DNA of 64,000 nt from positions 444 through 64,443 of the forward strand of contig DATFYI010000164.1 in NCBI GenBank assembly GCA_035315125.1. Direction: 5' to 3'. The notes beneath the pieces were generated by a model, which was not told where the DNA came from, searched no databases, and saw nothing but the letters and a program-made list of their open reading frames with translations. A program made the translations under genes and the position numbers. The stretch comes from Anaerolineaceae bacterium. Lineage in GTDB: Bacteria > Chloroflexota > Anaerolineae > Anaerolineales > Anaerolineaceae. Positions 5,045-20,284 of this stretch are shown here, piece after piece. Numbering within the stretch: position 1 is the stretch's first letter; each line of letters begins with the position of its first letter.

Positions 5045-5050
5045 GTGGCA

Positions 5051-5147
5051 TCCTTTCAATAGATAGTTTTTTGCGACAATACCATCCTATTCGAAAGGAG
5101 CTATAGATGTCCCTAAAAAAACCTATTAAATATCTATAAAATTATGG
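5051..5147 (-). promoter_or_regulatory. conserved stress promoter + 5' leader hairpin module, copy A (upstream of dps1)
   Basis: In gene orientation: ATTTAA (5131-5126), N12, GGGACAT (5113-5107), GATAGC-like box, then a long hairpin (5100-5051) whose 3' arm contains the SD GAAAGGA. Homologous to copies at 5860-5927, 9147-9243, 15566-15666 and 20190-20281. Confidence 0.55.
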
Positions 5148-5339
5148 AAATTGCCTCGTTAGTTTTAGGTAACTGCTCGCTTAATTAGAATCCTGTCTCG
5201 GGTGATGATCTGAATCATGCTACCCGAGGGGCACAATAATTTTTGCGCTGACGAGAGCTGACAGGTTGCTGTTAATAGCGGTTGTTGCTTCAATAAGCTA
5301 CTACGGCTGTGGCGGCTGAGTCAGCACATCTAACCCGCG

Positions 5340-5447
5340 TCAGCCAACAGCGGGCTTACGGGCTTCTTGCTTCAAACGCCGGTTATGGATACGCGTGCTC
5401 TTGGACAATCGTTTTAGTTTAGTCTTGCTTATTATTTTCTCTGCCAT
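5340..5447 (-). CDS. possible small basic protein (35 aa)
   Basis: ATG at 5447 is preceded by GGAGTAATTCA. Product MAEKIISKTKLKRLSKSTRIHNRRLKQEARKPAVG. Below ORF-track cutoff and unsupported otherwise. Confidence 0.3.
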   Translation of the reverse strand: MAEKIISKTKLKRLSKSTRIHNRRLKQEARKPAVG

Positions 5448-5578
5448 TGAATTACTCCTTATTTTGAAATGGAGTTGGGCCTTTCAATCTGAGCCGAGAT
5501 GCAGCACACGCCCGGATTAAAAATCGGGTGCGTAGATCTGGCATGAACTCTTGCTGCATTCGTTCAGGCTGTCTTTAT

Positions 5579-5806
5579 TTATGCAGACTTCTCGTTCTTG
5601 ATGACGCCGATTTCTTCATCATGTGCTTCTTCCCCAGCCCGCTCATTCTTGACGACGCCGATTTCTTCATCATGAGTTACTTCTCCAGCCCGCTCGTTAT
5701 TTACGACGCCAATTTCGGGCTGATGCAGTACTTCACCTGGCCGCTCGTTATTTACTCGGCCCACTACTACAGCTGTTACATTTTTAGGTGCTTCTTGGTC
5801 AGACAT
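5579..5806 (-). CDS. acidic 17-aa tandem-repeat mini-protein (75 aa), paralog 1
   Basis: About four 51-bp/17-aa repeats, xxxEIGVV(N/K)NER(A/P)GE(V/E). SD GAGGAG lies 8 nt before the ATG. Module copy C sits directly upstream. A paralog lies at 50746-50982. Confidence 0.55.
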   Translation of the reverse strand: MSDQEAPKNVTAVVVGRVNNERPGEVLHQPEIGVVNNERAGEVTHDEEIGVVKNERAGEEAHDEEIGVIKNEKSA

Positions 5807-5859
5807 TGAAAATCTCCTCTGATGGTCTAATACATTAGCTTGGTTTCTTATTACTACCT

Positions 5860-5927
5860 ACTATCCTATCCTAAATGGGCTATCTAAGTCCCTAATAAGC
5901 CCTATAAAATATCTAAAAAATTATAGG
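5860..5927 (-). promoter_or_regulatory. conserved stress promoter module, copy C (upstream of repeat mini-protein)
   Basis: ATTTTA (5910-5905), N12, GGGACTT (5892-5886), GATAGC. Identical to copy B apart from one substitution and one 1-nt indel over about 48 bp. Abuts the PAP2 stop codon. Confidence 0.5.
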
Positions 5928-5929
5928 TT

Positions 5930-6700
5930 TTATCCAAACCCTTTCAGCACATACCCGTCGACAATCACCCCGAGCAGCCCCCAGGCTGTGCCCAGGATGG
6001 CGCCGGCCAGCACGTCGCGCGGGTAATGCGCCCCGACGTACATGCGCGTGAGGCCCACCAGCAAGGCCGTAGCGTACAGCAGGAACACTATCCAAACGCT
6101 GGGGTGAAGGTGCTGGGCCAGCAGCGTTGCCATGAAAAAGGCCTGGCTGGTATGCCCGCTGGGGAAAGATCGCCCGGCGGGCCGGAAACCAACAATGCGC
6201 GCTTTGACCAGCTTGATAAAAGGTCGCGAGCGGTGGATTAAAAACTTAACCAGCTCGACCAGCAACCATAAGGTCAAAGTGCCTAAAATAAGCTCGGAGG
6301 CCAGATAACTTTCGTTGATCAAAAACAAGAACACGGCTATTGCCAGGGTAGTAAAGCCATTACCGACCTGGGTGAAAGCTAACATAATCCGGTCCAGCCA
6401 AAGCGGGCGCCGCCCGCGCACATTAAAGAACAAGAATGCCCAGGCGTCCAGCTGCTGACCGGTTGACCAGACTAATGATATGGCCAGTAAGCTGAAAACT
6501 AACAGCATGCCTGACAGGATTTTATGGGACAGCAAACCATCCCAAAAAGCAACCCGCATAGTTACAGGTAGAAAAGCAAGAAATACTAGCAGACCGGCCG
6601 ACAGGCCAATCAGCCGGGCTACCGGCTGATGATGATTCACCCAAAGTGTAAATCGCCCCCAGGTCGTTGGAATTTTAACTTCAGGCGAGGGTTGCATCAT
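5930..6700 (-). CDS. PAP2-family phosphatase (membrane)
   Basis: PAP2 motifs HRSRP, PSGHT, TRMYVGAHYPRD; polytopic. Start placed at the ATG-ATG at 6700 to limit overlap with the upstream gene; the track ORF extends to 6778. Confidence 0.8.
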   Translation of the reverse strand: MMQPSPEVKIPTTWGRFTLWVNHHQPVARLIGLSAGLLVFLAFLPVTMRVAFWDGLLSHKILSGMLLVFSLLAISLVWSTGQQLDAWAFLFFNVRGRRPLWLDRIMLAFTQVGNGFTTLAIAVFLFLINESYLASELILGTLTLWLLVELVKFLIHRSRPFIKLVKARIVGFRPAGRSFPSGHTSQAFFMATLLAQHLHPSVWIVFLLYATALLVGLTRMYVGAHYPRDVLAGAILGTAWGLLGVIVDGYVLKGFG

Positions 6701-7685
6701 TCGTTTGATGTTCAATGATGTTGCTCGTTTCCGGCTCAAGTTCTGGCGCCGGTTGGGAAACCATGACTGCCAGGGCATGCCGGCGCACTTTGATCTGTAC
6801 CCGTCCTTCTCCTATGGGAGACCCATCCACCATGACCGGCATAACAGGGTGGGTATCAATCACCACTCTGCGTACATGGTAGTGTTCGATGCGTGGGTCT
6901 TCCGGCTTGCCTTCGCCCACCCCTTGGAGAACATAGCCCAACAAATCCATCTTGGACAGGTCTGCAAAGAACAGCACATCCAATAAACCGTCACTAAAGG
7001 AAGCATCAGAGCCAATCCGATAATGAAGGCCAATTACGGGCATGTTGGAAACCAGTACAATATGGCCAAAATTATGGATCTCTTGCTTATTCTCCAATAA
7101 AAGATGGATTTCGGCTGGTGGGGAATTGACCAGTGTTGCCAGGAAATCGCCGACCCGTGCCAGGTTGCCGTGCTGTACGTCATCAGCGGATGGAAAAAGC
7201 GATGAGACCAGACCGACCGAGCAAACTTCCAAGAAAGGAGTAGAAATGTTGCCGCAGGTGGCCATGCCAACGTCCACTTTGATTCGCCGGCCATTTCGCA
7301 GAATGGAAATGGCAGCCGGAATATTGTTGGCAGGGATGCCCAGGCTGAGGGCATTGTTATTCTGTGTGCCGGTAGGGATAATCCCCAGGGTGGCATGTGT
7401 ACCGGCCAGGCTCCTGGCCGAAGTAGAAATCGTGCCGTCGCCGCCGCATACCACAAACATGCGGATGCCCTGCGCCAGTGCCTCCTGGATCACCCCCGGC
7501 AGGTCACAGCCCGGTTCGATCAAAAAAGGTTCTGGAATGAGCTTCCAATCCTGCATCTCACTGATCACATCCATCAGCTGGATAGGCGACTCGCCCGTTG
7601 ATCCAGATCCGGGATTGAAAATCAGCTTGGCTCGTATGGGGCGTCTACTCTTAGCACTGGGCTCTACATTCAAATGATTGTCCAT
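6681..7685 (-). CDS. diacylglycerol kinase family lipid kinase (YegS/DagK-like)
   Basis: AKLIFNPGSG...VVCGGDGTIS...GIIPTGTQNN is the typical DAGK catalytic-domain signature. Confidence 0.85.
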   Translation of the reverse strand: MDNHLNVEPSAKSRRPIRAKLIFNPGSGSTGESPIQLMDVISEMQDWKLIPEPFLIEPGCDLPGVIQEALAQGIRMFVVCGGDGTISTSARSLAGTHATLGIIPTGTQNNNALSLGIPANNIPAAISILRNGRRIKVDVGMATCGNISTPFLEVCSVGLVSSLFPSADDVQHGNLARVGDFLATLVNSPPAEIHLLLENKQEIHNFGHIVLVSNMPVIGLHYRIGSDASFSDGLLDVLFFADLSKMDLLGYVLQGVGEGKPEDPRIEHYHVRRVVIDTHPVMPVMVDGSPIGEGRVQIKVRRHALAVMVSQPAPELEPETSNIIEHQTNDATLA

Positions 7686-7745
7686 GCTTTACTCTTTTTG
7701 AAAAATATCATTTCCTGAGCTTGCGACAAGCTAGATTTTAATCAA

Positions 7746-8090
7746 CTATAAGGTCTGTCTAGAATGGAGTACCGGTAAGCGAGGGGTTGTCATGGGCAGA
7801 TTTTCTGATGGACTGAGCAGGACGGCGTAGCGCAGGCCAGCGGAGCTGCTGATCATTACCAGATGCCCATGTAGTGCGGCGGAAAGATGGGATAACACAC
7901 CGGCGGCAGTGTAGGATGCAAGGAATTCTAAAACCCTGTCATCCATCACCACAAACAACCAGGCATCCCCTTTCTCGGTTTCGGTCAAAACAAAACGACT
8001 GATGAGAGGGTCCAGGCCCTGCTCAGCCAGGATAGTTGGGATTACATGAGCAATGGCTTCAGCAGCCGGAAGATAACGATTAGCGCTCAT
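7746..8090 (-). CDS. hypothetical protein (114 aa)
   Basis: ORF separated by 2 nt from the upstream gene, which suggests coupling. No motif recognised. Confidence 0.45.
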   Translation of the reverse strand: MSANRYLPAAEAIAHVIPTILAEQGLDPLISRFVLTETEKGDAWLFVVMDDRVLEFLASYTAAGVLSHLSAALHGHLVMISSSAGLRYAVLLSPSENLPMTTPRLPVLHSRQTL

Positions 8091-8092
8091 AG

Positions 8093-9073
8093 CTACAGCC
8101 TTCCTTCAGTTGCCAATTGATGCTCCAGCTCGGCGATCCAATTTGCAATAGGTGGTTCGGCTGCATCAACAATTTCTACGTATGTCGTATTTTCACCTGG
8201 CAATACAGGCAGATTGGCCGGCCTTATTTCAGATGGAATGATCCGGTCAAGCCACGGATCATGGCCCGCAAAGCTTCCATCTATGATTGTCAAAGGGGTG
8301 GGGGTAACATTTGCAGGACCAATGCGCATACGACAAGGCCAGGGCATTGGCATAAACTGCCTGGAGACCAAAACAATTCCCAGGATGAACAACACAAGAT
8401 CCAGGACCGCAAATACAGGTATCAAAGGCTTGACGATTTGGTTTACAAAAGACTGTTGTTCCCGGCTGTATTCCTGCATCAGAAGGGCAGCCTGAGTGGC
8501 AGCGTAAGGTGTAGCCGTCAAAGGAGCAGCCGTCAAAGCTGCCACGGCCTGATTGGTTTGCAAGACCTGGACATTCAGAACCGCCTGAGCCTGGGCAGTC
8601 TGGCTGCCAACCACCCGGTAGGCTGATTGGGCGGCCGCAGCAGCACTGCGCTGAGCAGCGGCTGTGGCATCCCTGGCTATTTTCGTTTGCTGGGTTATGA
8701 ACTCTTGTGTGGCAGCAGCTCGGGTGATGTTCTGGCTGATAGTAGTTGCCTGGAAATCTAAAGCCAGTTGCTGGCGTTGGTTATACTGCAATGTGGACTG
8801 TGCGGCGCTATTTGCGGCCTGAGACATGTTTAGGCTGACCTCAGTGGATTGATGAGAGAGATCTAATAACTGGCTCTGGCCAGTATCGATGGTGGCCTGG
8901 GCATAAACGGAAGCAGGGTTGGGCAATCCAGAAATGTCTGGCGTGGGTGTACCAGGGCCTGATAGGATTGCAACTTCAGGTGTGGTTGCAACCGTGCTGG
9001 CACAAGCCAACATCAAAAGAGCTATGATGGCTATTATCAATTTCTTTATGATAGATTGCTTGTTTGTGTTCAT
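8093..9073 (-). CDS. Gln/Ala-rich putative lipoprotein with C-terminal TM helix
   Basis: Signal peptide with lipobox LLMLAC, long Q/A/T-rich low-complexity region, TM VFAVLDLVLFILGIVLV. Module copy D lies upstream. Confidence 0.55.
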   Translation of the reverse strand: MNTNKQSIIKKLIIAIIALLMLACASTVATTPEVAILSGPGTPTPDISGLPNPASVYAQATIDTGQSQLLDLSHQSTEVSLNMSQAANSAAQSTLQYNQRQQLALDFQATTISQNITRAAATQEFITQQTKIARDATAAAQRSAAAAAQSAYRVVGSQTAQAQAVLNVQVLQTNQAVAALTAAPLTATPYAATQAALLMQEYSREQQSFVNQIVKPLIPVFAVLDLVLFILGIVLVSRQFMPMPWPCRMRIGPANVTPTPLTIIDGSFAGHDPWLDRIIPSEIRPANLPVLPGENTTYVEIVDAAEPPIANWIAELEHQLATEGRL

Positions 9074-9146
9074 TCGATAATCATATAAACTTTATCTTAA
9101 TTTTGAGAGCAAGCAGGTTCTCTCTTTCGTAATTACCTGACCGGCT

Positions 9147-9243
9147 CTTTTTTCGTAAGATGGTTGATGTTCATCTATTATCTTATCCGAAAGCAGCTAT
9201 CGATGTCCCTAATTCAATCTGTAAAATACCTATTAAAATGATC
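9147..9243 (-). promoter_or_regulatory. conserved stress promoter + leader hairpin module, copy D
   Basis: ATTTTA (9227-9222), N12, GGGACAT (9209-9203), GATAGC, then a hairpin CTTTCG(GA)TAAGAT...ATCTTACGAAAG (9193-9147). Overlaps the mgtA stop codon. Confidence 0.5.
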
Positions 9244-11875
9244 ATTCGCCAAACTTATGGAAAAACCAGGTCTTTACCAGCTGTGTCAGAACCACATAAC
9301 ACAACAACATGACCGCCAGAAGCAGCCAATACAATGGTGGCAGTGTGACAAACCCTAGCGTGTTGGCCAAGGGTGAAACCGTCAGCCAGGCGCCCACCGC
9401 AACGATGATGAGAGATGTGCCGATCAGTGGCCAGCTGGCCCGGCTCTGGATAAATGGGATCTTGTTAGTACGGATGACGTGAATGATAAGGGTCTGCGTG
9501 AACAGGCTTTCTACGAACCAGCCGGTGTGGAAGAGGGCCGGGTTGTTCCATGAGTTGAAAACGTACAGCATAATAAAGAAAGTCAGGTAATCGAAGATCG
9601 AACTGATTGGGCCGATAAAGAGGATAAATCGCTGGATTGAGCCAATCGTCCATTTGCGCGGCTTGGCCAGCCAGTCAGCGTCGACCCCGTCAGTGGGGAT
9701 GGTAGTCTGTGAAAAATCATACAGCAAGTTATTTGTAAGCACCTGGATCGGCAGCATAGGGAGGAAAGGCAGGAATGCACTGGCCCCCACGACACTGAAC
9801 ATGTTGCCGAAGTTGGAGCTGGCTGCCATCCTGATATACTTAATGATGTTTCCGAACACCCTGCGACCCTCCAGAACGCCCTGCTTCAGAACCAGGAGGC
9901 TGTTTTCTAACAGAATGATATCGGAGGACTCCTTGGCGATATCTACAGCGCTGTTAACAGAGATGCCCACATCCGCCGCCTTCAAAGCCGGGGCGTCGTT
10001 AATACCATCGCCCATAAAACCAACCACGTGGCCTTTGCGCTGAAGAGCACGGATGATGTGTTCTTTGTGGGCCGGAGCCAGCTTGGCAAAGACACTGGCC
10101 GAGTTCACGGCTTCGTCGAGTTCCTTTTCGCTCATCGCCTCAATTTGAGGGCCTAGCAATATCTTCTCAATTGGCAGACCCACTTCTTTACAGATATAGG
10201 CAGTAATGATCTCATTATCACCGGTCAAAATCTTGACGTCCACATTTAGATCGTGCAACTGCTTCAAGGCCTGCGTGGCAGTATCCTTGGGCGGGTCAAG
10301 GAAGGACATGAAACCAAGCAGGATCATGTCCGATTCATCTTTAACAGTATAACTGGGCTCATCCGTGGCGCCTGGCATTTCCTTGTAAGCCAGGGCAATT
10401 ACCCGGAAGCCCTGATCGTTCAAGTTACTGGCGATCTTCAGTCCTTTGTCATGGTACTCGGGCAACATATCGATGGCCTTACCATCGATATCCACCCGGT
10501 TACAAAGGCTTATCACTTCTTCTACTGCGCCTTTACAGATCAGTGTATTCAACCCGGCTTTGTCTTCCACAATCACGGACATGCGTTTGCGTATAAAGTC
10601 AAATGGAATTTCGTCAATCTTGCGGTACTTTTCTTGTGCTTCTGAGGCAGGTTCCAGTTCCTCATGGTCGAGGACAGCGGCATCGAGCAAGTTCTTTAAC
10701 CCGGTATGATGGTAACTATTGAGGTAGCCATATTGGAGCACTTTATCACTGGAATTTCCCTGCACGTCCAGGTACTTCTCAAGTACGATCTTTCCCTGGG
10801 TGATGGTACCGGTCTTGTCGGTGCACAATACATCCATCGCTCCGAAGTTCTGGATGGAATTGAGGCGCTTGACAATGACTTTCTTCTTCGACATGTCGAG
10901 GGCGCCCTTGGACAGGTTGACCGTCACGATCATGGGCAGCATTTCGGGGGTCAGCCCAACAGCTACTGCCATGGCAAACAGAAATGCTTCCAGCCAGTTG
11001 TGTTTGCTGAAACCATTGATCAGGAAGACAGCCGGAACCATAATGGCTATAAAACGAATCATGAGCCAGGTGAATTTGTTTATCCCCTTGTCGAAGCCAG
11101 TCAGCTGGCGCTCACCTACAATACTGGCTGCCAATGATCCAAAGTAGGTCTGGTCTCCGGTGTGAATAACTACCGCGCTGGCAGAACCGCTCTGAACGTT
11201 GGAGCCCAGGAAGCAAATGTTGGGCAGTTCTAACGGGTTTTGAAGGGCTGCTGGAGCCTGGCCGGCTTTTTTCTCTACCGGCAGAGATTCACCGGTGAGA
11301 GCGGCCTGATCCAGGAAAAGGTCTTTAGCGGTAAGTACCCGCACGTCGGCCGGCGTCATATCACCGGCTGCCAGCCGGATGATATCGCCCGGCACCAAGA
11401 ACTTCAGCGGAACTTCTTTTTCCTTACCATCTCGCAGCACTGTGGCTGTGGTGCTGACCATCGCTTTGAGCTTTTCGGCCGCGTTATCGGCGCGCATTTC
11501 CTGGAAGAAACGCAACACCACGCCCAACAGCACCATCACGAAAATGACCAGCATGGCTCGCAGGTCGCCGGTCAGAAAAGATATCACACCCAGCGCCGTG
11601 AGCAGGATAACCAGGGGATTCTTGACGTTACTCAACAGACGCATCAGAGGGGATTGGCGTTTCTCACGGGCAATCTCGTTCAACCCATACTGCTTCGTAC
11701 GAGAGTCGGCTTCAGCAGTGCTTAAGCCGATTGTTTGCGAATCAAGCCCCTTCAAAACCGTATCATTATCTGCGCGTGCCTTTTCTAATAATTGATCGGA
11801 AAAATGCGCTCCATTCTTACTAGGGGGATTATTCAGACGCTGAGTTGGGTTCAGGGTCGTTTTCAGAGTTGCCAT
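9242..11875 (-). CDS. mgtA: magnesium-translocating P-type ATPase
   Basis: CTDKTGTITQGK phosphorylation site, TGDNE, MGDGINDAPALKAADVGIS, and the MgtA-specific C-terminal PIQVLTNNLLYDFSQTTIPTDGVDADWLAKPRKW. Confidence 0.92.
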   Translation of the reverse strand: MATLKTTLNPTQRLNNPPSKNGAHFSDQLLEKARADNDTVLKGLDSQTIGLSTAEADSRTKQYGLNEIAREKRQSPLMRLLSNVKNPLVILLTALGVISFLTGDLRAMLVIFVMVLLGVVLRFFQEMRADNAAEKLKAMVSTTATVLRDGKEKEVPLKFLVPGDIIRLAAGDMTPADVRVLTAKDLFLDQAALTGESLPVEKKAGQAPAALQNPLELPNICFLGSNVQSGSASAVVIHTGDQTYFGSLAASIVGERQLTGFDKGINKFTWLMIRFIAIMVPAVFLINGFSKHNWLEAFLFAMAVAVGLTPEMLPMIVTVNLSKGALDMSKKKVIVKRLNSIQNFGAMDVLCTDKTGTITQGKIVLEKYLDVQGNSSDKVLQYGYLNSYHHTGLKNLLDAAVLDHEELEPASEAQEKYRKIDEIPFDFIRKRMSVIVEDKAGLNTLICKGAVEEVISLCNRVDIDGKAIDMLPEYHDKGLKIASNLNDQGFRVIALAYKEMPGATDEPSYTVKDESDMILLGFMSFLDPPKDTATQALKQLHDLNVDVKILTGDNEIITAYICKEVGLPIEKILLGPQIEAMSEKELDEAVNSASVFAKLAPAHKEHIIRALQRKGHVVGFMGDGINDAPALKAADVGISVNSAVDIAKESSDIILLENSLLVLKQGVLEGRRVFGNIIKYIRMAASSNFGNMFSVVGASAFLPFLPMLPIQVLTNNLLYDFSQTTIPTDGVDADWLAKPRKWTIGSIQRFILFIGPISSIFDYLTFFIMLYVFNSWNNPALFHTGWFVESLFTQTLIIHVIRTNKIPFIQSRASWPLIGTSLIIVAVGAWLTVSPLANTLGFVTLPPLYWLLLAVMLLCYVVLTQLVKTWFFHKFGE

Positions 11876-11913
11876 CTATACCTCCGCGGTCGTTTATGAT
11901 CTTGTTTGATGAA

Positions 11914-11942
11914 ATCTAAATTCTGGCATTATTAATTTGCAA
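11914..11942 (-). promoter_or_regulatory. sigma70-like promoter for mgtA
   Basis: TTGCAA (11942-11937), 17-nt spacer, TTAGAT (11919-11914), about 40 nt upstream of the ATG. SD GCGGAGG. Confidence 0.4.
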
Positions 11943-11998: not shown

Positions 11999-12069
11999 GT
12001 TGATAGTCCTCCGTGGAGCTGCCGTAGGTGTCATCTCACAGCAGTGGTCCACGGAGGGCATGTCTGACC

Positions 12070-13162: not shown

Positions 13163-13435
13163 TCAATTCCTGGAACTTCTTCTGCCACCAGCTACCAGAC
13201 GAAAAACAATCAGCAGCAGGATAGCTCCACAGAAAGCTACCAAGATCGATTCAAGGTTGATCCCGTTTACCGCGGCGCTAATATGGAGGAAAGTAGTACC
13301 GATCCAGCCCCCTAACAAACCGCCCAGCACACCGACGATAATGTCGCCAATCAACCCGTAGCCACCACCCCTCATGACCTGTCCCGCCAAAAATCCGGCG
13401 ATCAAACCAACGACGATCCATGCAAGTATTCCCAT
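13163..13435 (-). CDS. GlsB/YeaQ/YmgE family stress-response membrane protein (paralog 2)
   Basis: MGILAWIVVGLIAGFLAG...GDIIVGVLGGLLGGW. Close paralog of 12070-12339. Confidence 0.9.
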   Translation of the reverse strand: MGILAWIVVGLIAGFLAGQVMRGGGYGLIGDIIVGVLGGLLGGWIGTTFLHISAAVNGINLESILVAFCGAILLLIVFRLVAGGRRSSRN

Positions 13436-13535
13436 AATAATCCTCCAAACATTTTTATATAGAATGCGTTTATTTGTGATGTGCGCAGATACTGCGCCTT
13501 ACGAATAGTGGTATTTCCAGTTTCAATCAGAAGGT

Positions 13536-13745
13536 TTAGCCCTTCTTGGCTTTTTTCTTCGAGTCCGAGGCAGGTTTTCCACCAGATTTGCTGGAAGAGA
13601 CGACCTTATCCGTATCCAGTGCCTTGACCGGCTGGCTTTCCGCCGCTTTTACTTCTAAAGATACGGCGCCACCGGCTTTCTCAACCGACAACGGTTTTGA
13701 TTTTGTTTTACTTTCCTTGCGTTTGCTTACGCCTTTACGTCCCAT
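13536..13745 (-). CDS. Lys/Ser-rich small hydrophilic protein (69 aa)
   Basis: ORF inside the stress operon. Low-complexity K/S/A-rich product; no known motif. Confidence 0.4.
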   Translation of the reverse strand: MGRKGVSKRKESKTKSKPLSVEKAGGAVSLEVKAAESQPVKALDTDKVVSSSKSGGKPASDSKKKAKKG

Positions 13746-13837
13746 CTATTTCTCCTTTCAGAATGTTTCATACAATCCTTGGTTTTCAGCGGTTAGGTTG
13801 CCAGACGAATGCAATGGTTTATATCCTTTCCCACCTA

Positions 13838-14353
13838 TCAAAGGGGACCGGGGGTTTGGGTCGTACGTTCGGTGACGACCGTTTGACTGGCGCTCACTGG
13901 TGCTTGGGTCGTAGTGCGATTAGTTGTCATCGTTCGGCTGACGCCCAAAGGTGCTTGCTGAGGGGTGTGATCGTTAATCGTCGTCTGTCTGGTGCTCACG
14001 GGGCCGCGCGGGCGGTAGAAAAGCACGTACACAATCTGTGCAAGAGCCCAACCGATCAGCAGATACACGATCATGGCAATGATGGAAGAAATCTCAAACA
14101 CCATGCCGCCAGCAGATAGGGGGGTTACTAGGCTTGCAAAAGGCGCCACGAAAAGGTTGGTCAGGTTGTAAAGCAGGGTTGCGAAAGGATTGGCCGCATT
14201 GACGCCGATCAACTTAAACAATACCCGTAGTGCAATTGCGATTTCGAGCAGTGCGACCAGCAGCCAGATCAATTGTGTGACTTTAAAGGTGGCCACGCGC
14301 TGCTCGCGCCCGGCTTCATGTTGTGAAGTTCTTATTTCTTGATAATCACTCAT
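13838..14353 (-). CDS. YggT-like membrane protein (paralog 2)
   Basis: LLEIAIALRVLFKLIGVNAANPF...LTNLFVAPFASL...IIAMIVYLLI. Paralog of 12518-13027. Confidence 0.6.
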   Translation of the reverse strand: MSDYQEIRTSQHEAGREQRVATFKVTQLIWLLVALLEIAIALRVLFKLIGVNAANPFATLLYNLTNLFVAPFASLVTPLSAGGMVFEISSIIAMIVYLLIGWALAQIVYVLFYRPRGPVSTRQTTINDHTPQQAPLGVSRTMTTNRTTTQAPVSASQTVVTERTTQTPGPL

Positions 14354-14367
14354 TTTGTCCTCTTTTC

Positions 14368-14541
14368 CTATCCTTTTTTGGCTCGCTCCTGGGAGTTACC
14401 AACCTTCTCCTGGATCTTGCCGGTTATTTTATCGATGTTTCCGCCAATTTTCTGACTGTTATTATGAGTAAGTTTGCCCCACCAGACCTTTGTCTGGCCG
14501 CGTATTTGCTTCCACTTGCCTTTCGAAACATTGTTGTTCAT
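14368..14541 (-). CDS. csbD: CsbD family general stress protein (57 aa)
   Basis: KGKWKQIRGQTKVWWGKLTHNN...ITGKIQEKVG matches CsbD. Start taken at the ATG at 14541, preceded by GGAGAAGG; the track ORF is extended upstream. Confidence 0.8.
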   Translation of the reverse strand: MNNNVSKGKWKQIRGQTKVWWGKLTHNNSQKIGGNIDKITGKIQEKVGNSQERAKKG

Positions 14542-14581
14542 TGTCCTTCTCCTATCGAATGGAATGAATTCAAGCCTGGTA

Positions 14582-15013
14582 CTATCCAAGCAGCGGCCGG
14601 ACAGGTCTGAGTAAACTACCCAGCAATAAACCAACAACCAGTGCGATCGTTATTGCAACCCAGGGATATCTGGCAGCCTGCTTGCCGAAGCCGCCTGGAA
14701 CTTTGTCGGCAACTTCCTGCGCCTTGGCGTTGTATTGGCTCAAGCCATGTCCAACATCCTTCTTCACTGTCGCTGCAGCGCCAACTACAGCCTCCTTGGC
14801 ATCGCCTGTCATTTTTTCGAATCCCTCGCCTAATTGAGAGACATTGTCATTCACCCAGCTGGTCAAGTCTTCTTTGGCTTTGACAGTGGCCTGGCTAAAG
14901 TTGTCTTGTACTCTGGTAACCCGAGCGGTGCTGTCGTCCATCAGGGTGCTTATATCTTTTTTTACCTTAGCAGTATCCTTGCGGACTTTGTTTTCAAATT
15001 GGTGGTCATTCAT
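14582..15013 (-). CDS. DUF883 / ElaB-YqjD-like membrane-anchored stress protein
   Basis: Helical hydrophilic N-terminus and C-terminal anchor YPWVAITIALVVGLLLGSLL, typical of ElaB/YqjD/YgaM. Overlaps the dps2 stop by 8 nt. Confidence 0.7.
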   Translation of the reverse strand: MNDHQFENKVRKDTAKVKKDISTLMDDSTARVTRVQDNFSQATVKAKEDLTSWVNDNVSQLGEGFEKMTGDAKEAVVGAAATVKKDVGHGLSQYNAKAQEVADKVPGGFGKQAARYPWVAITIALVVGLLLGSLLRPVRPLLG

Positions 15014-15563
15014 CTTTTAAAATCCTTTTCTGGCTTTCGCCGTAAACTGGTTCATTCTCGATATAGGAACGTAGGATCCAGGCCATCTTTTCATGCAAAC
15101 GCATAATGCTGACCAGCAATTCGAATGTGCCTTCATCCTCGTACTCTTCAGTGCATTTTCTGGCATCCTCACGTAAAAAACGAATGGTGGCCTCATGGTC
15201 AGCTAAAAGGCGCAGGATATCTGGCACAACACCAGTCTGTTCTTCCAGACGGGTGTAATTGATAAATTCCTGCAAGCTGCCGATAGCAATCCCACCCAGC
15301 ATGCGTGCCCGCTCGGCTAACTCATCGGAGATATCGCTCAATTGTTCGTACTGGGAATTGAATAGGATGTGCAGCTCGAAGAAACCTGCTCCGCTCACGT
15401 TCCATTGGGCGCTGCGGGTTTTTATGGTCAGCACGGCCTCATTGGCCAGAGTGTTGTTGAGGAGTTCCACAACCGAATGGCGGACATCGCTATCCAATCC
15501 TATATTCGGCTGGATGAGGACCTGCAGCTTCGTGTTATGGCCGTCGTTCCGATTGTGTTCCAT
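15006..15563 (-). CDS. dps: Dps family DNA-protection/ferritin-like protein (paralog 2)
   Basis: LNNTLANEAVLTIKTRSAQWNVSGAGFFELHILFNSQYEQL...AERARMLGG. Start taken at the second ATG (15563), behind SD GAAAGGAAG. Confidence 0.9.
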   Translation of the reverse strand: MEHNRNDGHNTKLQVLIQPNIGLDSDVRHSVVELLNNTLANEAVLTIKTRSAQWNVSGAGFFELHILFNSQYEQLSDISDELAERARMLGGIAIGSLQEFINYTRLEEQTGVVPDILRLLADHEATIRFLREDARKCTEEYEDEGTFELLVSIMRLHEKMAWILRSYIENEPVYGESQKRILKDE

Positions 15564-15565
15564 AT

Positions 15566-15666
15566 AGCTTCCTTTCATCAGATGGTTTTTTCTTGCAATA
15601 CCATCTTATGCGAAAGGAGCTATCTAAGTCCCTAATAAGCCCTATATAATATCTAAAAAATTATGG
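15566..15666 (-). promoter_or_regulatory. conserved stress promoter + 5' leader hairpin module, copy B (upstream of dps2)
   Basis: ATTATA (15650-15645), N12, GGGACTT (15632-15626), GATAGC, then hairpin arms 15621-15600 and 15586-15566. The 3' arm contains the SD. Confidence 0.55.
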
Positions 15667-15673
15667 TTATTGG

Positions 15674-16357
15674 TTAGAAGATTTTTTTCGAGTGCAGGTT
15701 ATATCCCATGCCGGGCACCGTTTCGAGCAGGTCGCCGTAATCCCCCAGTTTTCTGCGCAAGCGGCCGAGATAAGTATGTAAATAGTGATTCGAGCCGCGG
15801 TACTCTGGCCCCCAAACCTGGGTAATCAGCTCATCATGGGTAACGATGGCATCCAGGCGGTGCGCCAGTTCGGCAAGAATGGCATACTCGGTGTGGGTAA
15901 GATGCACATCGTTCTCACCGATCAGGACGCGGCGCGCTTCCAGGTCTATACTGAGGTCTCCAATCTGAATTTTTGAGTCATCGGTTTTCGCGGCGACGTA
16001 GGATCGGCGCAGAAAAGCGCGCACTCGCGCCAATAATTCTTCCTGCCCAAACGGTTTGGTGACGTAATCATCTGCGCCCGCATCCAGTGCCGCCACTTTG
16101 AGATCTTCTTCCAGCCGGGCGCTCAATACAATAATGGGCACATCCGAACGCGCCCGGATCCATTTACAAATATCGACCCCCGAAAGACCGGGCAGCATCA
16201 GGTCCAGCAGAACCAGGTCCACCGGTTCCTGTTCAAATAAGGCAAGCGCCTGGTGGCTGTCCTCCGCTTCGCTGACGGTGTAGCCACGTTTCACCAGGTT
16301 GACCCGCACCAATTTGCGGATATTTGGATCATCTTCAACAATTAATATATTCCCCAT
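15674..16357 (-). CDS. OmpR-family response regulator
   Basis: Receiver domain (ILIVEDD...DLVLLDLMLPG...DDYVTKPF) plus a winged-helix C-terminus (VHLTHTEYAILAEL...GMGY). Confidence 0.9.
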   Translation of the reverse strand: MGNILIVEDDPNIRKLVRVNLVKRGYTVSEAEDSHQALALFEQEPVDLVLLDLMLPGLSGVDICKWIRARSDVPIIVLSARLEEDLKVAALDAGADDYVTKPFGQEELLARVRAFLRRSYVAAKTDDSKIQIGDLSIDLEARRVLIGENDVHLTHTEYAILAELAHRLDAIVTHDELITQVWGPEYRGSNHYLHTYLGRLRRKLGDYGDLLETVPGMGYNLHSKKIF

Positions 16358-16360
16358 GCC

Positions 16361-18070
16361 TTATTGCTCCTCTTTGGAAGGTACCGCCGGGGCATGCAAA
16401 GGGACAAGAGGGATAGTAAATGAAATGGTCGTTCCCGGTGTGTTTTTTTTCTTAATCCAAATGCGGCCGCCATGAGCTTCTACCAGCCCTTTACAAATAG
16501 CCAATCCCAATCCGGCGCCTTTCGCCGAGCTATTCTCCGCATTTATGCCCCGTTGAAAAGCCCTAAATACCCTCTTTTGTTCGGCCGGTGGAATACCCGG
16601 CCCCTGGTCACTGATATTGATCTGCACAAAATCTCCCCGCACACTGGCCGAGATGCTGATTTCCGTCGCTTTGGGGGAATAGATAGAGGCGTTCCGCACC
16701 AGATTGACCAATACCTGGGCGATGCGCCTGGCGTCTACATAGACCTGCGGCAGGTTGGCAGGTAGATGATGTGTCAATGTATGCCCGCCAGTTAAGCTAT
16801 TAAATTGCGGCAAGGCATCTTCGATAATCTCGTAGAGAGAATGAGGCGCCAGCGAAATCGGCAGCATGCCCGCTTCCAGGCGGGAGAGATCCAGCAGGTG
16901 ATCGATGAGCTCCTGGAGCCGGTCGGCCTCCTGTTGAATAGTCTGGATGAAATCGCGCTGTTCGTCCGGCTCCCAGGTGACATCATCGGCCAACAATGTG
17001 GTGGTAAACCCGATGATAGAGGTCAAAGGAGTCCGCAGCTCATGCGAGATCATGGCCAGGAACTGGGTTTTTATTTCATTGGCCCGCTCAGCCTCATGGC
17101 GGGATCCTTCCTCGACCTCGAGCAGTTGCAGGTTATAAAGGGTGACCGAGGCCTGGTTTACGAGCACTTTAAGATGGTGCAGTTCGATATGATCGAATTG
17201 ATGTTCTTGTTTGTAATAAACCAACAGACATCCGAGCCAATCCGCTAAGGCGACCAGCGGGAAGATAGCCAGGGTTCGAATCTGTCCTTCCAGCAGGAAA
17301 TCACGCAGCAAGGGCGTCAAACGACTGTCGGATTGTATCCCTGTGATGATCACCGTCCGGTTGGATTGGAACAGCCCCCACAAAGCAGGTTCTTCGTACA
17401 GGCTGGTTTCAGTCAGCCAGGGAGGTGGATTCTGACTGGACAGCCAGGCGGCTTTCAAATCGACCCCGCCGGCCGGCCCAACCCGAGGATTATCGAAAAA
17501 AAGCAGGGCTGCTCGTTGGGCGGAACGAAGCTCACGTGCAGACATGAGTGTTTTGAGAACTGCTTCAGGTTTACGGGACAGGCTCATCTTGTGACTGAGG
17601 TCAAACTGCTCGCGAGAACGATCCAGGGCTTTCCGCAAAGTTTGATCCACCTGGTTTTGATCGGTGATATCCTGGGCAACACAGACCTGATAAGATGTGT
17701 CCGATGTCTCTGCACGGATCAGAAAGGTATGAACAGAAATCCATCTCAGGCTGCCGTCCGGACGCACAATTCGGTAAGAGAGGTCCAGGGAATTGCGCTG
17801 GTTATCGTCAGGGCTGGCAGACATCACTTTTACCCGGTCTTCCGGATGGACACTTTCGATCAGTGTTGCCGGATCGGCATAAAGGCTTTCGCAGGAACGA
17901 CCCCAAACGATCTCAAAAGCCGGGCTGACATAGAGAATGGAATCCGTATTCAAGTCAAGTATCCAGACCACTTGCTGAATGTTCTGCAAAATTTGCTTGA
18001 GGTAAGGGTAACCCTCAAGCAATGCTTTTATATCAATTTGAGATTTTTCCTGTTCTAGCATATCCGTCAT
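16361..18070 (-). CDS. PAS/GAF-containing sensor histidine kinase
   Basis: PAS-like N-terminus, GAF-like middle, H-box SHELRTPLTSI, N-box LVRNA, G-boxes DQGPGI and GAGLGLAICKG. No TM segment is evident. Confidence 0.88.
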   Translation of the reverse strand: MTDMLEQEKSQIDIKALLEGYPYLKQILQNIQQVVWILDLNTDSILYVSPAFEIVWGRSCESLYADPATLIESVHPEDRVKVMSASPDDNQRNSLDLSYRIVRPDGSLRWISVHTFLIRAETSDTSYQVCVAQDITDQNQVDQTLRKALDRSREQFDLSHKMSLSRKPEAVLKTLMSARELRSAQRAALLFFDNPRVGPAGGVDLKAAWLSSQNPPPWLTETSLYEEPALWGLFQSNRTVIITGIQSDSRLTPLLRDFLLEGQIRTLAIFPLVALADWLGCLLVYYKQEHQFDHIELHHLKVLVNQASVTLYNLQLLEVEEGSRHEAERANEIKTQFLAMISHELRTPLTSIIGFTTTLLADDVTWEPDEQRDFIQTIQQEADRLQELIDHLLDLSRLEAGMLPISLAPHSLYEIIEDALPQFNSLTGGHTLTHHLPANLPQVYVDARRIAQVLVNLVRNASIYSPKATEISISASVRGDFVQINISDQGPGIPPAEQKRVFRAFQRGINAENSSAKGAGLGLAICKGLVEAHGGRIWIKKKNTPGTTISFTIPLVPLHAPAVPSKEEQ

Positions 18071-18130
18071 TCTTGAGGCGAAAGGTTAAAAGACTGAGCG
18101 ATCATCCGCCTGGCCTGAGTACGTCGATCG

Positions 18131-18171
18131 TGTATCAAAAAACGTAGAGAGAAAGAAGTCATCTCTACGTT
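18131..18171 (-). terminator. terminator-like hairpin in the leader of the kinase operon
   Basis: Perfect 10-bp stem AACGTAGAGA/TCTCTACGTT (18141-18171) followed on the minus strand by TTTTGAT. Lies about 60 nt upstream of the kinase start. Confidence 0.35.
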
Positions 18172-18471
18172 CGTAAGGTTGAATTTAAATATGGCTGGTG
18201 GAGATGCTTCGTTCTATCCAGTCACTATCGATGATTTCAAACCAATTCCAACATATATTATACACTTTTTTGTATATCAATTGGCTACGCATTGGCGCCA
18301 TATTGTTAGAAATAATATAGGTTTTTTTGGGGACAATGATAGATGGATTTGGATAATATAGTAGTTGATGGAGAGGATTACCAATATCCTCTTTGTGCGT
18401 GTAAAAAAAAGCTTTATTTATGTGAGCAGTTTTTCTATAAGCTGTTTCACGGGTAACTAAGGAGGCGTTTT

Positions 18472-19032
18472 GTGAATGCTACATATTATTATATTATCGG
18501 CGTCGTTCTCGTATTGGTGATCATAGGTGCCATATTGGCGCCGATTTTTGCTCGCCGCAAACGTTCGGACAATTTCCATGATAAGTATGGGTCTGAATAT
18601 GATCACACTGTGGAGACTATGGGCAACGAGAAGAAAGCACAAACAGAGCTGGTTGAACGGCAGAAGCATGTGGATGCTTTGAATATTCGTCCCCTCTCTG
18701 TTAATGAGCACCAGCGTTATCTGGCTGATTGGACTGCTGTCCAGGCCAAATTTGTCGACGAACCGGGTCAGGCGACTGTGGAAGCCGACCACCTGATCAT
18801 GGAGGTCATGCAGGTTCGTAACTACCCGGTTTCTGATTTCGAGCAGCGGGCTGCCGATGTCTCGATCAGTTACCCTGCTTTGGTGAGTAATTACCGAGCC
18901 GCACGCGTGATTGCGCTCAAAAATGAGAAGCACCAGGCAAATACTGAAGAATTAAGACAGGCAATGATTTATTACCGCTCTCTGTTCGATGAACTCCTGG
19001 CAGAAGAGCCAGTCGCGGTAAAGGAGAGCTAG
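18472..19032 (+). CDS. membrane-anchored hypothetical protein with conserved C-terminal helical domain
   Basis: GTG start behind TAAGGAGG. N-terminal TM. The C-terminal domain ...WTAVQAKFVDEPGQATVEADHLIMEVM...LRQAMIYYRSLFDELL is shared with the next gene. Confidence 0.6.
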   Translation: MNATYYYIIGVVLVLVIIGAILAPIFARRKRSDNFHDKYGSEYDHTVETMGNEKKAQTELVERQKHVDALNIRPLSVNEHQRYLADWTAVQAKFVDEPGQATVEADHLIMEVMQVRNYPVSDFEQRAADVSISYPALVSNYRAARVIALKNEKHQANTEELRQAMIYYRSLFDELLAEEPVAVKES

Positions 19033-19034
19033 AG

Positions 19035-19739
19035 ATGAACGGTCAATATTTTGAAGAACGTTCGAATACCTCTGACATCGTTGGGAGAGCTGATACGGGT
19101 ACGAACAGCCCGGTAGTAACTTCAGATACTTTTGCCGGTAATGTCCCGCTGGATGCAACTCTTATACACGATATGCCGATGGGCGGTGGAAGCGTTGCTG
19201 CCGTGGGCCCGATGGACGTGCCTGTGGCCGATGAGGTCCCGATGTATCAGACTCCTGTCCAAAATATCCCTTTGAGCGAGACCGTTGCTCCGGTCAGTCC
19301 GATTTACCAGACGGTTGTCCCCGAGGCTCCGATGAGCGAGACGATCCATTACACAGCTGTGATGGGGGAAACAATTGTTGACGAGTCCCAAGCGAGCATG
19401 TCGACCCCTTACATGGCTCCGAAAGTTGAGCCTGCACCCTATGAAGCCCATCCTGGCTCGAATGCCGGACCATCGGCGGCTCTGCTTAATCGTGATCAAT
19501 CAGAGCATTTTCGTACACACTGGAATGAAATCCAGGGTATGTTTGTGGACGATCCTCGCTCTGCTGTCCAGCAGGCGGATGCACTGGTATCGGAGGTAGT
19601 CGAACAAATCACCCAGATGTTTGCCAGCGAACATACCTCACTGGAAACACAGTGGAAGCAGGGCAATGATGTCTCGACTGAAGATCTGCGTAAGGCCTTG
19701 CAGCACTACCGCTCCTTCTTCAATCGCCTGGTGGTTTGA
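19035..19739 (+). CDS. hypothetical protein, paralogous C-terminal domain
   Basis: Pro/Val/Met-rich repetitive N-terminus. C-terminus ...HWNEIQGMFVDDPRSAVQQADALVSEVV...LRKALQHYRSFFNRLV parallels 18472-19032. Confidence 0.6.
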   Translation: MNGQYFEERSNTSDIVGRADTGTNSPVVTSDTFAGNVPLDATLIHDMPMGGGSVAAVGPMDVPVADEVPMYQTPVQNIPLSETVAPVSPIYQTVVPEAPMSETIHYTAVMGETIVDESQASMSTPYMAPKVEPAPYEAHPGSNAGPSAALLNRDQSEHFRTHWNEIQGMFVDDPRSAVQQADALVSEVVEQITQMFASEHTSLETQWKQGNDVSTEDLRKALQHYRSFFNRLVV

Positions 19740-19786
19740 AAGCAGAAGAGTTAAACAATAACCTGTTAGAATTTGCAATTGCAAAG

Positions 19787-19822
19787 TGACCTGACCCTCA
19801 TACCGGGGGCCAGGTCATTCTT
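19787..19822 (+). terminator. probable intrinsic terminator
   Basis: Stem TGACCTG(A)CCC/GGG(G)CAGGTCA followed by TTCTT. The U-tract is weak. Confidence 0.4.
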
Positions 19823-19950
19823 AGGCGGGTAAAGAATGTTGAATTTGTAAAAAGTCTTAATACGGGGTAAGATAAAACTATCATCTAAATAACGATAAAA
19901 GAACACTCGCGTTAAGCCATTGGGTATTTCCGGGGTGCGAGGGTTAATAT

Positions 19951-20178
19951 ATGGAAATACCCATTGAGGAAACAATGCTGATCAGATATTCATGCAAGGA
20001 TATGGGCTTGAATTGCTTATTTGTGGCTAAGGGCCAGACGCTGGAAGAGGTGACAAAGATGGCGATAGAACACGTGTTGGATAAACACAAAGATGATTTT
20101 AATAGTCTCCAATCGCCGGAAGAGATCGAAAAGATGAAGCAGGCCTTAGCGCGTTCCACACGAGTGGTGGCAGGGTAA
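19951..20178 (+). CDS. DUF1059 small metal-binding-like protein
   Basis: MLIRYSCKDMGLNCLFVAKGQTLEEVTKMAIEHVLDKH fits the DUF1059 pattern (C-x-D-x-G-x-x-C...G-x-T-x-EE...H). Confidence 0.65.
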   Translation: MEIPIEETMLIRYSCKDMGLNCLFVAKGQTLEEVTKMAIEHVLDKHKDDFNSLQSPEEIEKMKQALARSTRVVAG

Positions 20179-20189
20179 TATAAAAAATT

Positions 20190-20281
20190 TTGACATTTGA
20201 TAGATATTTTATAGGTTTTTAAAGGGACATTGACAGCCTTTTTTTCGTAAAATGATCCAGAGGAAATTTTGCGAAAAAAAG
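20190..20281 (+). promoter_or_regulatory. conserved stress promoter + leader hairpin module, copy E (plus-strand orientation, faces usp-cgs)
   Basis: ATTTTA (20206-20211), N12, GGGACAT (20224-20230), TTGACAGC, then a 16-bp hairpin CCTTTTTTTCGTAAAAT...ATTTTGCGAAAAAAAG (20238-20281). Confidence 0.5.
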
Positions 20282-20284
20282 TAA

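Follow-up and report, generated by a model that had tools for sequence, protein, structure and literature searches.

A Conserved ~65-Base Cassette Heads Stress-Type Genes in Anaerolineae-Type Chloroflexi: A Candidate Regulator-Dependent Promoter with a Fold-Back Leader

Introduction

Activators of the OmpR/PhoB family bind as tandem dimers to direct repeats, where the proximal dimer lies over the −35 region and takes the place of the contact there (PMC11825685). In the PHO-box promoters served by PhoB in Escherichia coli and by PhoP in Bacillus, Streptomyces, and Mycobacterium, direct repeats of ~11 bp extend into a noncanonical −35 region followed by a recognizable −10 (PMC11825685; PMC2275107). 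We describe here a cassette with a related layout, ~65 bases long, that occurs six times in a 64,000-nucleotide stretch of Anaerolineaceae bacterium DNA (GCA_035315125.1, contig DATFYI010000164.1, positions 444 to 64,443 of the forward strand; hereafter the window), with all copies located between 5.1 and 20.3 kb and each facing a gene. Cassette positions are counted from the T of TAGATA (position 1), and a copy spans positions −5 to 60. By analogy with described systems, the cassette appears to work like a PHO-box-type regulator-dependent promoter combined with a Shine–Dalgarno (SD)-masking fold-back, placed over a SigB-like gene set. A literature search on promoters or stress regulation in Anaerolineae-type Chloroflexi yielded no paper on either subject and no prior description of the cassette.

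The likeness to PHO-box promoters extends to the candidate regulator, a member of that protein family whose gene lies beside a putative target. However, the cassette repeat (TTWTAGR) is unrelated to any PHO box, its spacing is 11, 10, and then 8 or 12 bp rather than a clean 7+4 unit, conservation is higher in its GGGAC block than in the repeats, the regulon concerns stress and protection rather than phosphate, and binding is putative here. With the promoters of SigB in Firmicutes and of SigF/SigB-like factors in Actinobacteria and cyanobacteria, the cassette shares a GGG-type box, an A/T-rich hexamer 12–14 nt upstream, and an association with dps, csbD, usp, and glsB. The SigB-type −10 reads GGGWAW, which the cassette's GGGAC resembles, but the cassette has GGGACWT instead, along with a conserved "spacer" and a TAnnAT 18 nt downstream, and no linked sigma or anti-sigma genes were found in the flanks.

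Davis, Simons, and Kleckner reportedly described in 1985 the fold-back inhibition of IS10 and IS50, in which the element's own transcript is said to start between the two arms, such that only outside transcripts fold and are silenced. According to PMC13181058, IS10 shields its transposase against outside promoters by folding the translation signals into a secondary structure. The cassette is similar in that its 3′ arm holds the ribosome-binding site, a complementary 5′ arm lies upstream, and the start is inferred to fall between the arms; it differs in that the genes served would be those of a cellular stress regulon with many operons, not a transposase gene, and in that its 5′ arm would be the promoter's own spacer and −10. 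Like the ROSE and fourU thermometers and the rpoS leader, the cassette carries an anti-SD stretch (CUCCUUUC) that pairs with the SD of stress genes; however, it has no Rfam match, and its stems of 15–20 bp, at −18 to −22 kcal/mol, are probably too stable for a thermometer. Long conserved motifs that mark a lineage-wide protection regulon under one dedicated regulator are known from Deinococcus (RDRM/DdrO) and cyanobacteria (HLR1/RpaB), with HLR1 being a direct repeat bound by an OmpR-type regulator and RDRM a palindrome bound by a repressor. The cassette is also a long, highly conserved motif marking a lineage's protection regulon and, as with HLR1, a direct repeat, but its sequence is unrelated to either and it extends into a leader with an RNA function. 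It belongs to no named motif family: its repeat unit, regulator, and leader have no described counterpart, and none is in Rfam. What surprises is how long and how rigid the conserved unit is and that positions 36–57 are used as both DNA and RNA.

Six Copies of One Conserved Unit

An initial annotation of the window, made from its letters and open reading frames (ORFs), had proposed five copies of a promoter-plus-leader module. All five were found where it had placed them, and a search for repeats and patterns brought up a sixth (copy F, Table 1) that had been overlooked. When a 65-column weight matrix trained solely on instances from other genomes and metagenomes was run on the window, exactly six sites were returned at 52–97 bits, with the next score (−32) lying at the level of shuffled sequence. 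Short patterns are similarly enriched, as ATAGG-N8-GGGACWW-NN-AYAG matches five times (0.01 expected) and GGGACW-N18-TANNAT six times (0.16 expected). The proposed common architecture stands in the form TAGATATTWWATAGG-N8-GGGACWT-N-GATAGC in gene orientation, followed by a conserved leader; its 12-nt spacer holds if counted from ATTWWA, whereas ATAGG and GGGAC are 8 nt apart. The upstream half of copy C is the most degenerate of the set. Copies B and C, previously taken for a near-identical pair, agree at only 32/47 bases, and the pair in question is instead B and D (5860–5927 and 15566–15666), with 45/47 identical.

When one genome per species was searched for exact matches to the upstream half plus GGGACWT, 13 stretches from 10 genomes were retrieved, all of which are Chloroflexi metagenome-assembled genomes (MAGs) labelled Anaerolineaceae, Bellilinea, Chloroflexia, or Chloroflexi. 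Complete MAG chromosomes, for example OY969772.1, are among the sequences with the cassette. A metagenome scan anchored on the downstream half only (GGGACWT-N-GATAGCTCCTTTCG) yielded 46 stretches, all but one of which also carry the upstream half. Since the scan with each half recovers the other, the module is one unit. Filtering left 78 nonredundant instances from the 10 MAGs and ~45 metagenome contigs, with the window itself being matched on metagenome contigs only. These instances sit in the same orientation before orthologous genes, and the reading of the module as the shared promoter-plus-leader unit of a stress-type regulon is borne out by its presence before orthologous dps, elaB/csbD/yggT/glsB, usp–glucan synthase, mini-protein, and lipoprotein genes. 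Placement relative to gene starts is uniform: the six window copies and all 78 instances face a gene, the latter within a narrow range of distances.

Cassette variants specific to a gene family are common to orthologous loci across genomes. The F-type variant (TAGRAATAATATAGG...GGGGACAA) is found in the window and in the orthologous copies of two other loci (L003 and L011), the E-type variant (CCTTTTTTTCG) in the window and L005, and the variant of copies B and D (GGGCTTATTAGGGACTT) also at the orthologous loci L023 and L047. Variation of this kind argues for vertical descent with the gene, not recent mobile-element-like spread, and on these sequence comparisons we regard the cassette as a conserved stress-regulon switch in Anaerolineae-type Chloroflexi and not as a mobile element.

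Conserved DNA Anatomy

The information profile of the instances shows an abrupt onset of conservation at position −5. The conserved blocks comprise T1A2G3A4, A6T7T8T9, A11T12A13G14G15, T19A20T21, and A23G24G25G26A27C28A29T30 in the upstream part, followed downstream by G32A33T34A35G36, T41T42T43C44G45, T48A49nnA52T53, T56A57, and a purine at 60. Recovery patterns fix some of these columns; each half was checked with instances anchored on the other half. TAG(A/G) boxes, each with an A/T-rich 5′ flank, recur at positions 1, 12, and 22 (and at 30/34) with 11- and 10-bp phasing, the third overlapping GGGACA (24–29). Downstream, TAnnAT (48–53) persists in ~76 of 80 genuine instances, including families with unrelated sequence at 37–47; T48, A49, A52, and T53 are near-invariant, and the middle two bases are free. 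GGGACA and TAnnAT are separated by 18 nt of variable sequence, a distance that is constant but for a single 17-nt exception, and position 60, located 7 nt past TAnnAT, is a purine in 79 of 88 instances. Two invariant hexamers, a variable spacer of fixed length, and a purine 7 nt further on read as the signature of a −35/−10 promoter. A generic sigma-70 scan flags copy E in the same register (GGGACA-18-TAAAAT); for copy F, it pairs GGGACA with another hexamer, GATAAT, at 16-nt spacing.

Other assignments were considered and rejected. Placing the −10 at TATTAG (19–24), TAGATA (30–35), or TATTTT (5–10) would leave −11 without a conserved A or −7 without a conserved T, or would move the start past the paired region, and an extracytoplasmic function (ECF)-type promoter of the form GGGAC-N15-CG would start too far downstream. 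Matches to the Bacillus SigH-, SigE/K-, and SigF/G-type consensus sequences are poor, and similarity to phage SP6/T7-like promoters appears only with gaps. A CsrA site (AGGAUGG) lacks its GGA in about half of the instances, while a mini-ORF from A52UG has no SD and its G54 is A or U in one third of instances.

A Paired Leader Overlapping the Putative Promoter

In the sense RNA, positions 36–57 are complementary to sequence 10–40 nt downstream, which includes the SD in most families. The stretch CUCCUUUC at 38–45 is identical to the anti-SD motif of the 16S rRNA 3′ end. A leader hairpin had been ascribed to every copy; it is strong in A, D, and E (folding z of −4.2, −4.6, and −5.9, respectively), weak in C (−1.4), and absent from B (+0.7) and F (−0.8). 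At other loci, z reaches −4.2 for the SDR-type copy of L005, −4.7 for the ATPase copy of L015, and −4.4 for the RRM family, such that strong hairpins (−4.2 to −5.9) are found in five independent gene families.

Pair counting on an unfitted MAFFT alignment of 39 leaders, using a stated two-stem structure, found 88.5% of cells paired versus 37–65% for slid partners, with eight pairs changed on both sides. Compensation is also seen across families, with AAGAUGGU/ACCAUCUU (dps) versus AAGAUUAC/GUAAUCUU (ATPase), CGUAAAAU/AUUUUGCG (copy E) versus CGUAAGA/UCUUGCG (L005), and CUCC:GGAG versus UCAU:AUGA (L006/L008). The RRM family displays an independently placed UUCCUGUACU/AGUAUAGGAA pairing, and since its anti-SD (UUCCU) occupies another place in the 5′ arm, the SD mask must have arisen separately there. 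This family is represented in L004 and L010, where the gene of an 85-aa RRM_1 RNA-binding protein with its own cassette lies between the regulator and dps. Furthermore, the downstream sequence of a copy finds a better pairing partner in the 5′ arm of that copy than in foreign arms, the sense strand folds more stably than the antisense strand in 60 of 78 cases, and G:U pairs outnumber A:C (58 vs 24). Together, the pairing, the compensatory changes, and the sense bias indicate that an RNA containing positions 36–57 exists and is under selection.

General RNA searches returned nothing further. RNAalifold on the MAFFT alignment of the 39 leaders found no structure, because loop lengths vary; Rfam 15, including ROSE, fourU, and other thermometers, gave 0 hits at the gathering threshold for the window and six loci and 0 hits for positions 4900–20600 at E-values up to 1; and ARAGORN gave no hit on related loci. 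Hairpin strength differs in the expected direction between copies with and without a co-oriented upstream gene (median z of −2.7 vs −0.8), a comparison confounded by dps over-representation and noisy ORF calls and not used here as evidence.

The initial annotation had noted an SDR gene stump behind copy E, and the relative L005 indeed has an intact SDR gene between cassette and usp. Relative to L005, ~650 bp of the SDR gene are deleted at 20260–20483 (+), and a 3′ stump of it now separates copy E from usp. Where the 3′ arm of the hairpin once carried GAAAGGGAG as an SD, it now reads GAAAAAAAG, which improves pairing.

A Linked Two-Component System

An OmpR/PhoB-family response regulator and a PAS-GAF histidine kinase, its partner, are encoded between copies D and F (Table 1). 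The regulator is a generic family member, with KdpE, PhoB, MtrA, and RegX3 as its best matches and scores under every equivalog cut-off. Its ortholog (79–91% amino-acid identity) is present in 26 of the ~59 loci recovered purely by DNA motif, and in 22 of these 26 the cassette starts 22–140 nt past the regulator stop codon, whatever gene follows (dps, RRM protein, or kinase); the distance from the regulator gene end to the cassette is typically 20–50 nt. A kinase ortholog occurs in 20 loci, and on its other side it often has a usp-type or 186-aa-type cassette pointing away from it, just as copy F points away from the kinase gene of the window. The suggestion that the adjacent OmpR-type regulator may bind the module was the part of the initial annotation that fared best, in the form of an association at these 26 loci. 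The cassette is probably operated by this kinase and regulator. A search of 440 kb of cassette-flanking DNA found no sigma-70 region 2.2, RpoN, or enhancer-binding-protein (GAFTGA) motif, which is weak negative evidence.

The kinase–regulator operon has a promoter-like site of its own, of the TTGATA...TGTATAAT type, at 18230–18265 (−), ~45 bp from the upstream edge of the divergent copy F. The putative regulator boxes of copy F could also serve autoregulation of this operon.

Predicted Start Site and Favored Mechanism

The DNA invariants put the −10 at 48–53 and the start near 60, whereas the RNA pairing needs transcripts that begin at or before 36. Both would hold if transcription from the cassette itself began within the hairpin loop. 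Our preferred model, tentative and held with slightly less than half of our confidence, is a regulator-activated promoter that starts within this loop, whose own mRNA would be translatable while read-through transcripts would be masked as in IS10. Regulator binding, the sigma factor in use, the start site, and the read-through logic are parts of this model that we infer from sequence.

The TAGR boxes at 1, 12, and 22 (and 30/34) would be the direct-repeat sites of the regulator, the last of them overlapping the −35-like GGGACA at 24–29, from which an 18-bp spacer would lead to the −10 hexamer TAnnAT at 48–53 and a start at the conserved purine near 60. With such a start, the boxes would lie at about −59, −48, and −38, a geometry that resembles that of OmpR/PhoB-family activators. 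Positions 36–57, comprising the spacer and the −10, would double as the arm complementary to the SD region. A transcript entering from upstream, for example from the kinase–regulator operon, which ends 20–50 nt before the cassette without a terminator, would fold into the −18 to −22 kcal/mol hairpin and have its ribosome-binding site buried. The induced own transcript, which would start in the loop and lack the 5′ arm, would be translatable.

Folding predictions are consistent with this scheme. Pairing probability is 0.11 at positions 60–64 versus ~0.9 in the arms, and the median predicted SD accessibility is 0.000 for transcripts from −30, 0.001 from 36, and 0.153 from 60, being higher from position 60 in 53 of 63 cases. 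No terminator-like site was found directly upstream of copies B, C, and D. At these copies and the 22 regulator-linked loci, co-oriented genes end 15–140 nt upstream with no such site; in the window, copy B starts 15 nt past the PAP2 stop, copy C directly past the mgtA stop, and copy D 18 nt past the stop codon of the response regulator. Some folding copies lie in divergent regions. Metagenome contig ends, taken as transcript-like ends, coincide with neither position 36 nor position 60.

Several observations weigh against this model. The argument for the start site is wholly one of sequence logic, and since most instances precede dps genes, many of the counts are phylogenetically non-independent. 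At the DNA level, box spacing becomes irregular past the third box (8 or 12) and does not amount to an even number of clean 11-bp units, GGGAC is the best-conserved block, an odd feature in a −35 region supposedly replaced by an activator, and position −9 of the proposed −10 is a G in 70% of instances. At the RNA level, copies B and C follow co-oriented genes yet fold weakly, whereas the usp copy of L007 folds (z of −1.7 to −3.5) even though its intergenic region is divergent. Finally, the hairpin of copy E has been kept, and even improved, though the masked SD was lost with the SDR gene, which hints at a role beyond SD masking.

Alternative Readings

The initial annotation had likened the module to SigB/SigF-type promoters, and a group-3 sigma factor of this kind is the strongest alternative, although we consider it less likely than not. 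It would recognize ATTTWA as the −35 and, after a 12–14-nt spacer, GGGACWT as the −10, with a start near G36 giving a 5′-terminal hairpin that stabilizes the mRNA and masks the SD until opened. This assignment accounts for GGGAC as the best-conserved block, for conservation beginning ~40 bp upstream of position 36, for RNA pairing from 36–38 in most families, including the divergent L007 usp copy, where read-through is not expected, and for the maintenance of the copy E hairpin without an SD; dps, csbD, usp, and glsB are a typical SigB-type set. The resemblance is nevertheless partial. ATTTWA-N12-GGGACWT is present in all copies, but its −10 has an extra or changed base relative to GGGWAW and its −35 matches 3–4 of 6 positions of GTTTAA. 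A SigB-like promoter also leaves unexplained the near-invariant TAnnAT at a fixed 18 nt past GGGACA across unrelated intervening sequences, the conserved ATAGG and TAT within the supposed spacer, and the GATAG downstream. Moreover, positions 34–35 are paired in 22–28 of 30 dps leaders, which would set the start ≤4 nt past GGGACAT, and the predicted SD accessibility of ~0.001 from 36 would demand a dedicated unmasking factor. The flanks with their 440 kb show no sigma or anti-sigma signature, against an OmpR-type regulator in 26 loci.

A combination of both starts within one cassette, with transcripts from near 36 or further upstream being masked and stable and those from near 60 unmasked, would reconcile RNA pairing from 36, including in divergent context, with the −10-like TAnnAT at fixed spacing. 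The putative regulator boxes overlap the core of the first start and lie in activator position for the second, so that they could serve to repress the former and activate the latter. Phosphorylation would switch between the isoforms, and the phosphorylated regulator would thus convert the output of the entire regulon from stable, silent transcripts to mRNAs that can be translated. We hold both the two-start arrangement and such a switch to be doubtful, with a small chance of being right: two promoters, possibly of two sigma specificities, would have to fit within 60 bp, both starts are putative, and read-through in an 18-kb co-oriented string is the more parsimonious explanation.

A sigma-54 promoter (−24/−12) is very improbable. 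It would use G24G25-N10-G36C37, with the flanks AGGGACA...TAGCT, and start at T48/A49; 10 of 12 consensus positions of TGGCAC-N5-TTGCW match, the GG-N10-GC spacing is correct, both blocks are conserved, and A49 is a near-invariant purine after a pyrimidine. Sigma-54 is present in some Chloroflexi (PMC3162934). However, a start at 49 would exclude the outer hairpin arm (36–45) with its compensatory changes, A52 and T53 would be unexplained, C37 is conserved in just 78% of instances, the 440-kb flanks hold no GAFTGA-type activator or RpoN motif, and the linked regulator is OmpR-type rather than an AAA+ enhancer-binding protein.

There is similarly scant likelihood that the entire module is a structured, riboswitch-like cis-regulatory RNA transcribed from an upstream promoter. 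A 10/12 sigma-70-like site ends 4 nt upstream of copy B (TATAAT), and CATAAT occupies the same place in copies A and D, but positions −10 to −5 are poorly conserved overall. Positions 1–35 have no internal or downstream complement, their pairing probability is at background, and their features are direct repeats; no Rfam hit was obtained even at E-values up to 1. The least credible alternative is the recently spread mobile promoter, resembling a miniature inverted-repeat transposable element, that the initial annotation had raised: the near-identity of copies B and D, the three copies abutting upstream stop codons, and the gene stump behind one copy would fit it, but it is contradicted by the family-specific variants at orthologous loci (F-type, E-type, and B/D), by the position of 78/78 instances before a gene at a narrow distance, and by the lack of terminal inverted repeats on reading the window copies, for which target-site duplications were not searched.

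Genes behind the Cassettes

The coordinates of the copies, their hairpins, and the genes that they face are collected in Table 1. Exact look-ups of the two Dps proteins returned no record. Instances in other genomes precede orthologs of the window genes, among them dps (30 instances), the 186/234-aa pair, and usp–cyclic glucan synthase; the repeat mini-protein, the 326-aa protein, GlsB, the ElaB-like protein, and the 69-aa protein are further ortholog families found behind cassettes elsewhere. Beyond the window set, cassettes precede genes for an RRM-type RNA-binding protein, an N-ATPase-like operon, sensor kinases, and small membrane proteins.

Table 1. Cassette copies, hairpin arms, linked regulators, and genes in the window
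Feature	Coordinates	Strand	Details
Copy A	5077–5142	−	Position 1 at 5136; GGGACA 5113–5108; TAGGAT 5089–5084; faces dps1; 95 bits
Copy A hairpin 3′ arm	5048–5067	−	Includes SD GAAAGGA; pairs with positions 36–56 (5101–5081); −18.9 kcal/mol, z −4.2
Copy B	5856–5921	−	Position 1 at 5915; TAGGAT 5868–5863; faces repeat mini-protein; 78 bits; no significant hairpin
Copy C	9173–9238	−	Position 1 at 9232; TAAGAT 9185–9180; faces lipoprotein–DAGK–PAP2 string; 77 bits; weak hairpin
Copy D	15596–15661	−	Position 1 at 15655; TAAGAT 15608–15603; faces dps2 string; 97 bits
Copy D hairpin 3′ arm	15567–15586	−	Includes SD GAAAGGAAGC; pairs with positions 36–56 (15620–15600); −20.4 kcal/mol, z −4.6
Copy F	18301–18366	+	Position 1 at 18307; TAATAT 18354–18359; faces ORFs 18472–19032 and 19035–19739; 53 bits; cassette in no hairpin
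Copy E and hairpin	20195–20281	+	Position 1 at 20201; TAAAAT 20248–20253; arms 20238–20253 / 20266–20281, 16 bp; 57 bits; z −5.9; followed by SDR gene stump, then usp and cyclic glucan synthase
OmpR/PhoB-family response regulator	15674–16357	−	Response_reg and Trans_reg_C; candidate cassette regulator
Histidine kinase	16361–18070	−	PAS-GAF-HisKA-HATPase; partner of regulator
Copy A genes	3253–5044	−	dps1 4502–5044; small ORFs 4169–4432, 3688–4176, 3516–3671, 3253–3510
Genes past copy A genes		−	On same strand; BON-domain protein 1999–3195; FtsH 128–1972
Copy B genes	5341–5806	−	Repeat mini-protein 5579–5806; tiny basic ORF 5341–5448
Copy C genes	5930–9073	−	326-aa protein without Pfam hit 8093–9073; 114-aa ORF; DAGK/YegS 6681–7685; PAP2 5930–6778
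Copy D genes	12070–15563	−	dps2, DUF883/ElaB-like, CsbD, YggT-like, 69-aa ORF, GlsB/transglycosylase-associated, second YggT-like, second GlsB
P-type ATPase	9242–11875	−	After copy D genes
Copy F genes	18472–20178	+	186-aa and 234-aa proteins without family hits; DUF1059 19951–20178
Copy E genes	20484–30457	+	Tandem Usp protein 20484–21581; GH94 cyclic beta-1,2-glucan synthase-like protein to 30457

Between 128 and 18070 on the minus strand, the kinase, regulator, dps2 string, P-type ATPase, lipid-enzyme string, mini-protein, dps1 string, BON-domain protein, and FtsH are co-oriented over 18 kb, an arrangement that looks like a stress island of cassette-headed units. The 35-aa, very basic ORF at 5341–5448 (−) (MAEKIISKTKLKRLSK...) lies between the mini-protein and copy A; since its homolog in L026 stands under a cassette of its own, the ORF probably encodes a genuine small protein belonging to the regulon. 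A paralog of the mini-protein with VNNER.GE-type repeats is encoded 45 kb away at 50750–50982 (+) without a cassette. Upstream of this paralog, an AT-rich region contains a canonical TTGCAA-N17/18-TATAAT, providing an example of a housekeeping-type promoter in this organism.

Related loci extend the gene set. In L015 (4867–6561, −), a cassette with a perfect, compensated 8-bp hairpin precedes an operon led by an F-type ATPase beta subunit, whose gene order resembles that of N-ATPase operons and suggests an ion-stress arm of the regulon. Seven loci (L020, L045, L055, L064, L027, L035, and L029) have a conserved noncoding leader of ~330 nt between the cassette and the gene of a small secreted protein; it contains common blocks such as AGTGAAGGGAATTTG and CGAGCGTCTGGCAGTGG, has no Rfam or ARAGORN hit, and is a candidate new cis-regulatory RNA. 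Elsewhere in the window, the stretch at ~33800–38200 has a low GC content (0.31–0.42 vs ~0.5–0.6 around it), encodes 798-aa and 301-aa ORFs without Pfam hits and a DUF559 gene, and may be a foreign insert; it is followed by 66-nt direct repeats at 38001–38066 and 38087–38152.

Implications for Anaerolineae-Type Chloroflexi

Sediments, peat, digesters, and groundwater harbor abundant Anaerolineae-type Chloroflexi, an understudied lineage of which most members are uncultured. The ~65-bp cassette lets a stress and protection regulon be predicted straight from their MAGs and also names a candidate sensor–regulator pair. The predicted regulon comprises Dps, Usp, CsbD, YggT, GlsB, cyclic glucan synthase, an N-ATPase-like operon, an RRM-type RNA-binding protein, and several proteins of unknown function. 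If transcription does start in the hairpin loop, a cellular regulon would be using its own promoter DNA as an anti-SD, silencing read-through in strings of genes that lack terminators; this design has so far been described for transposases and would offer synthetic biology a compact, portable insulator. If, instead, the regulator switches between two start sites, the cassette would give bacteria an equivalent of isoform-based translational control that acts on an entire regulon.

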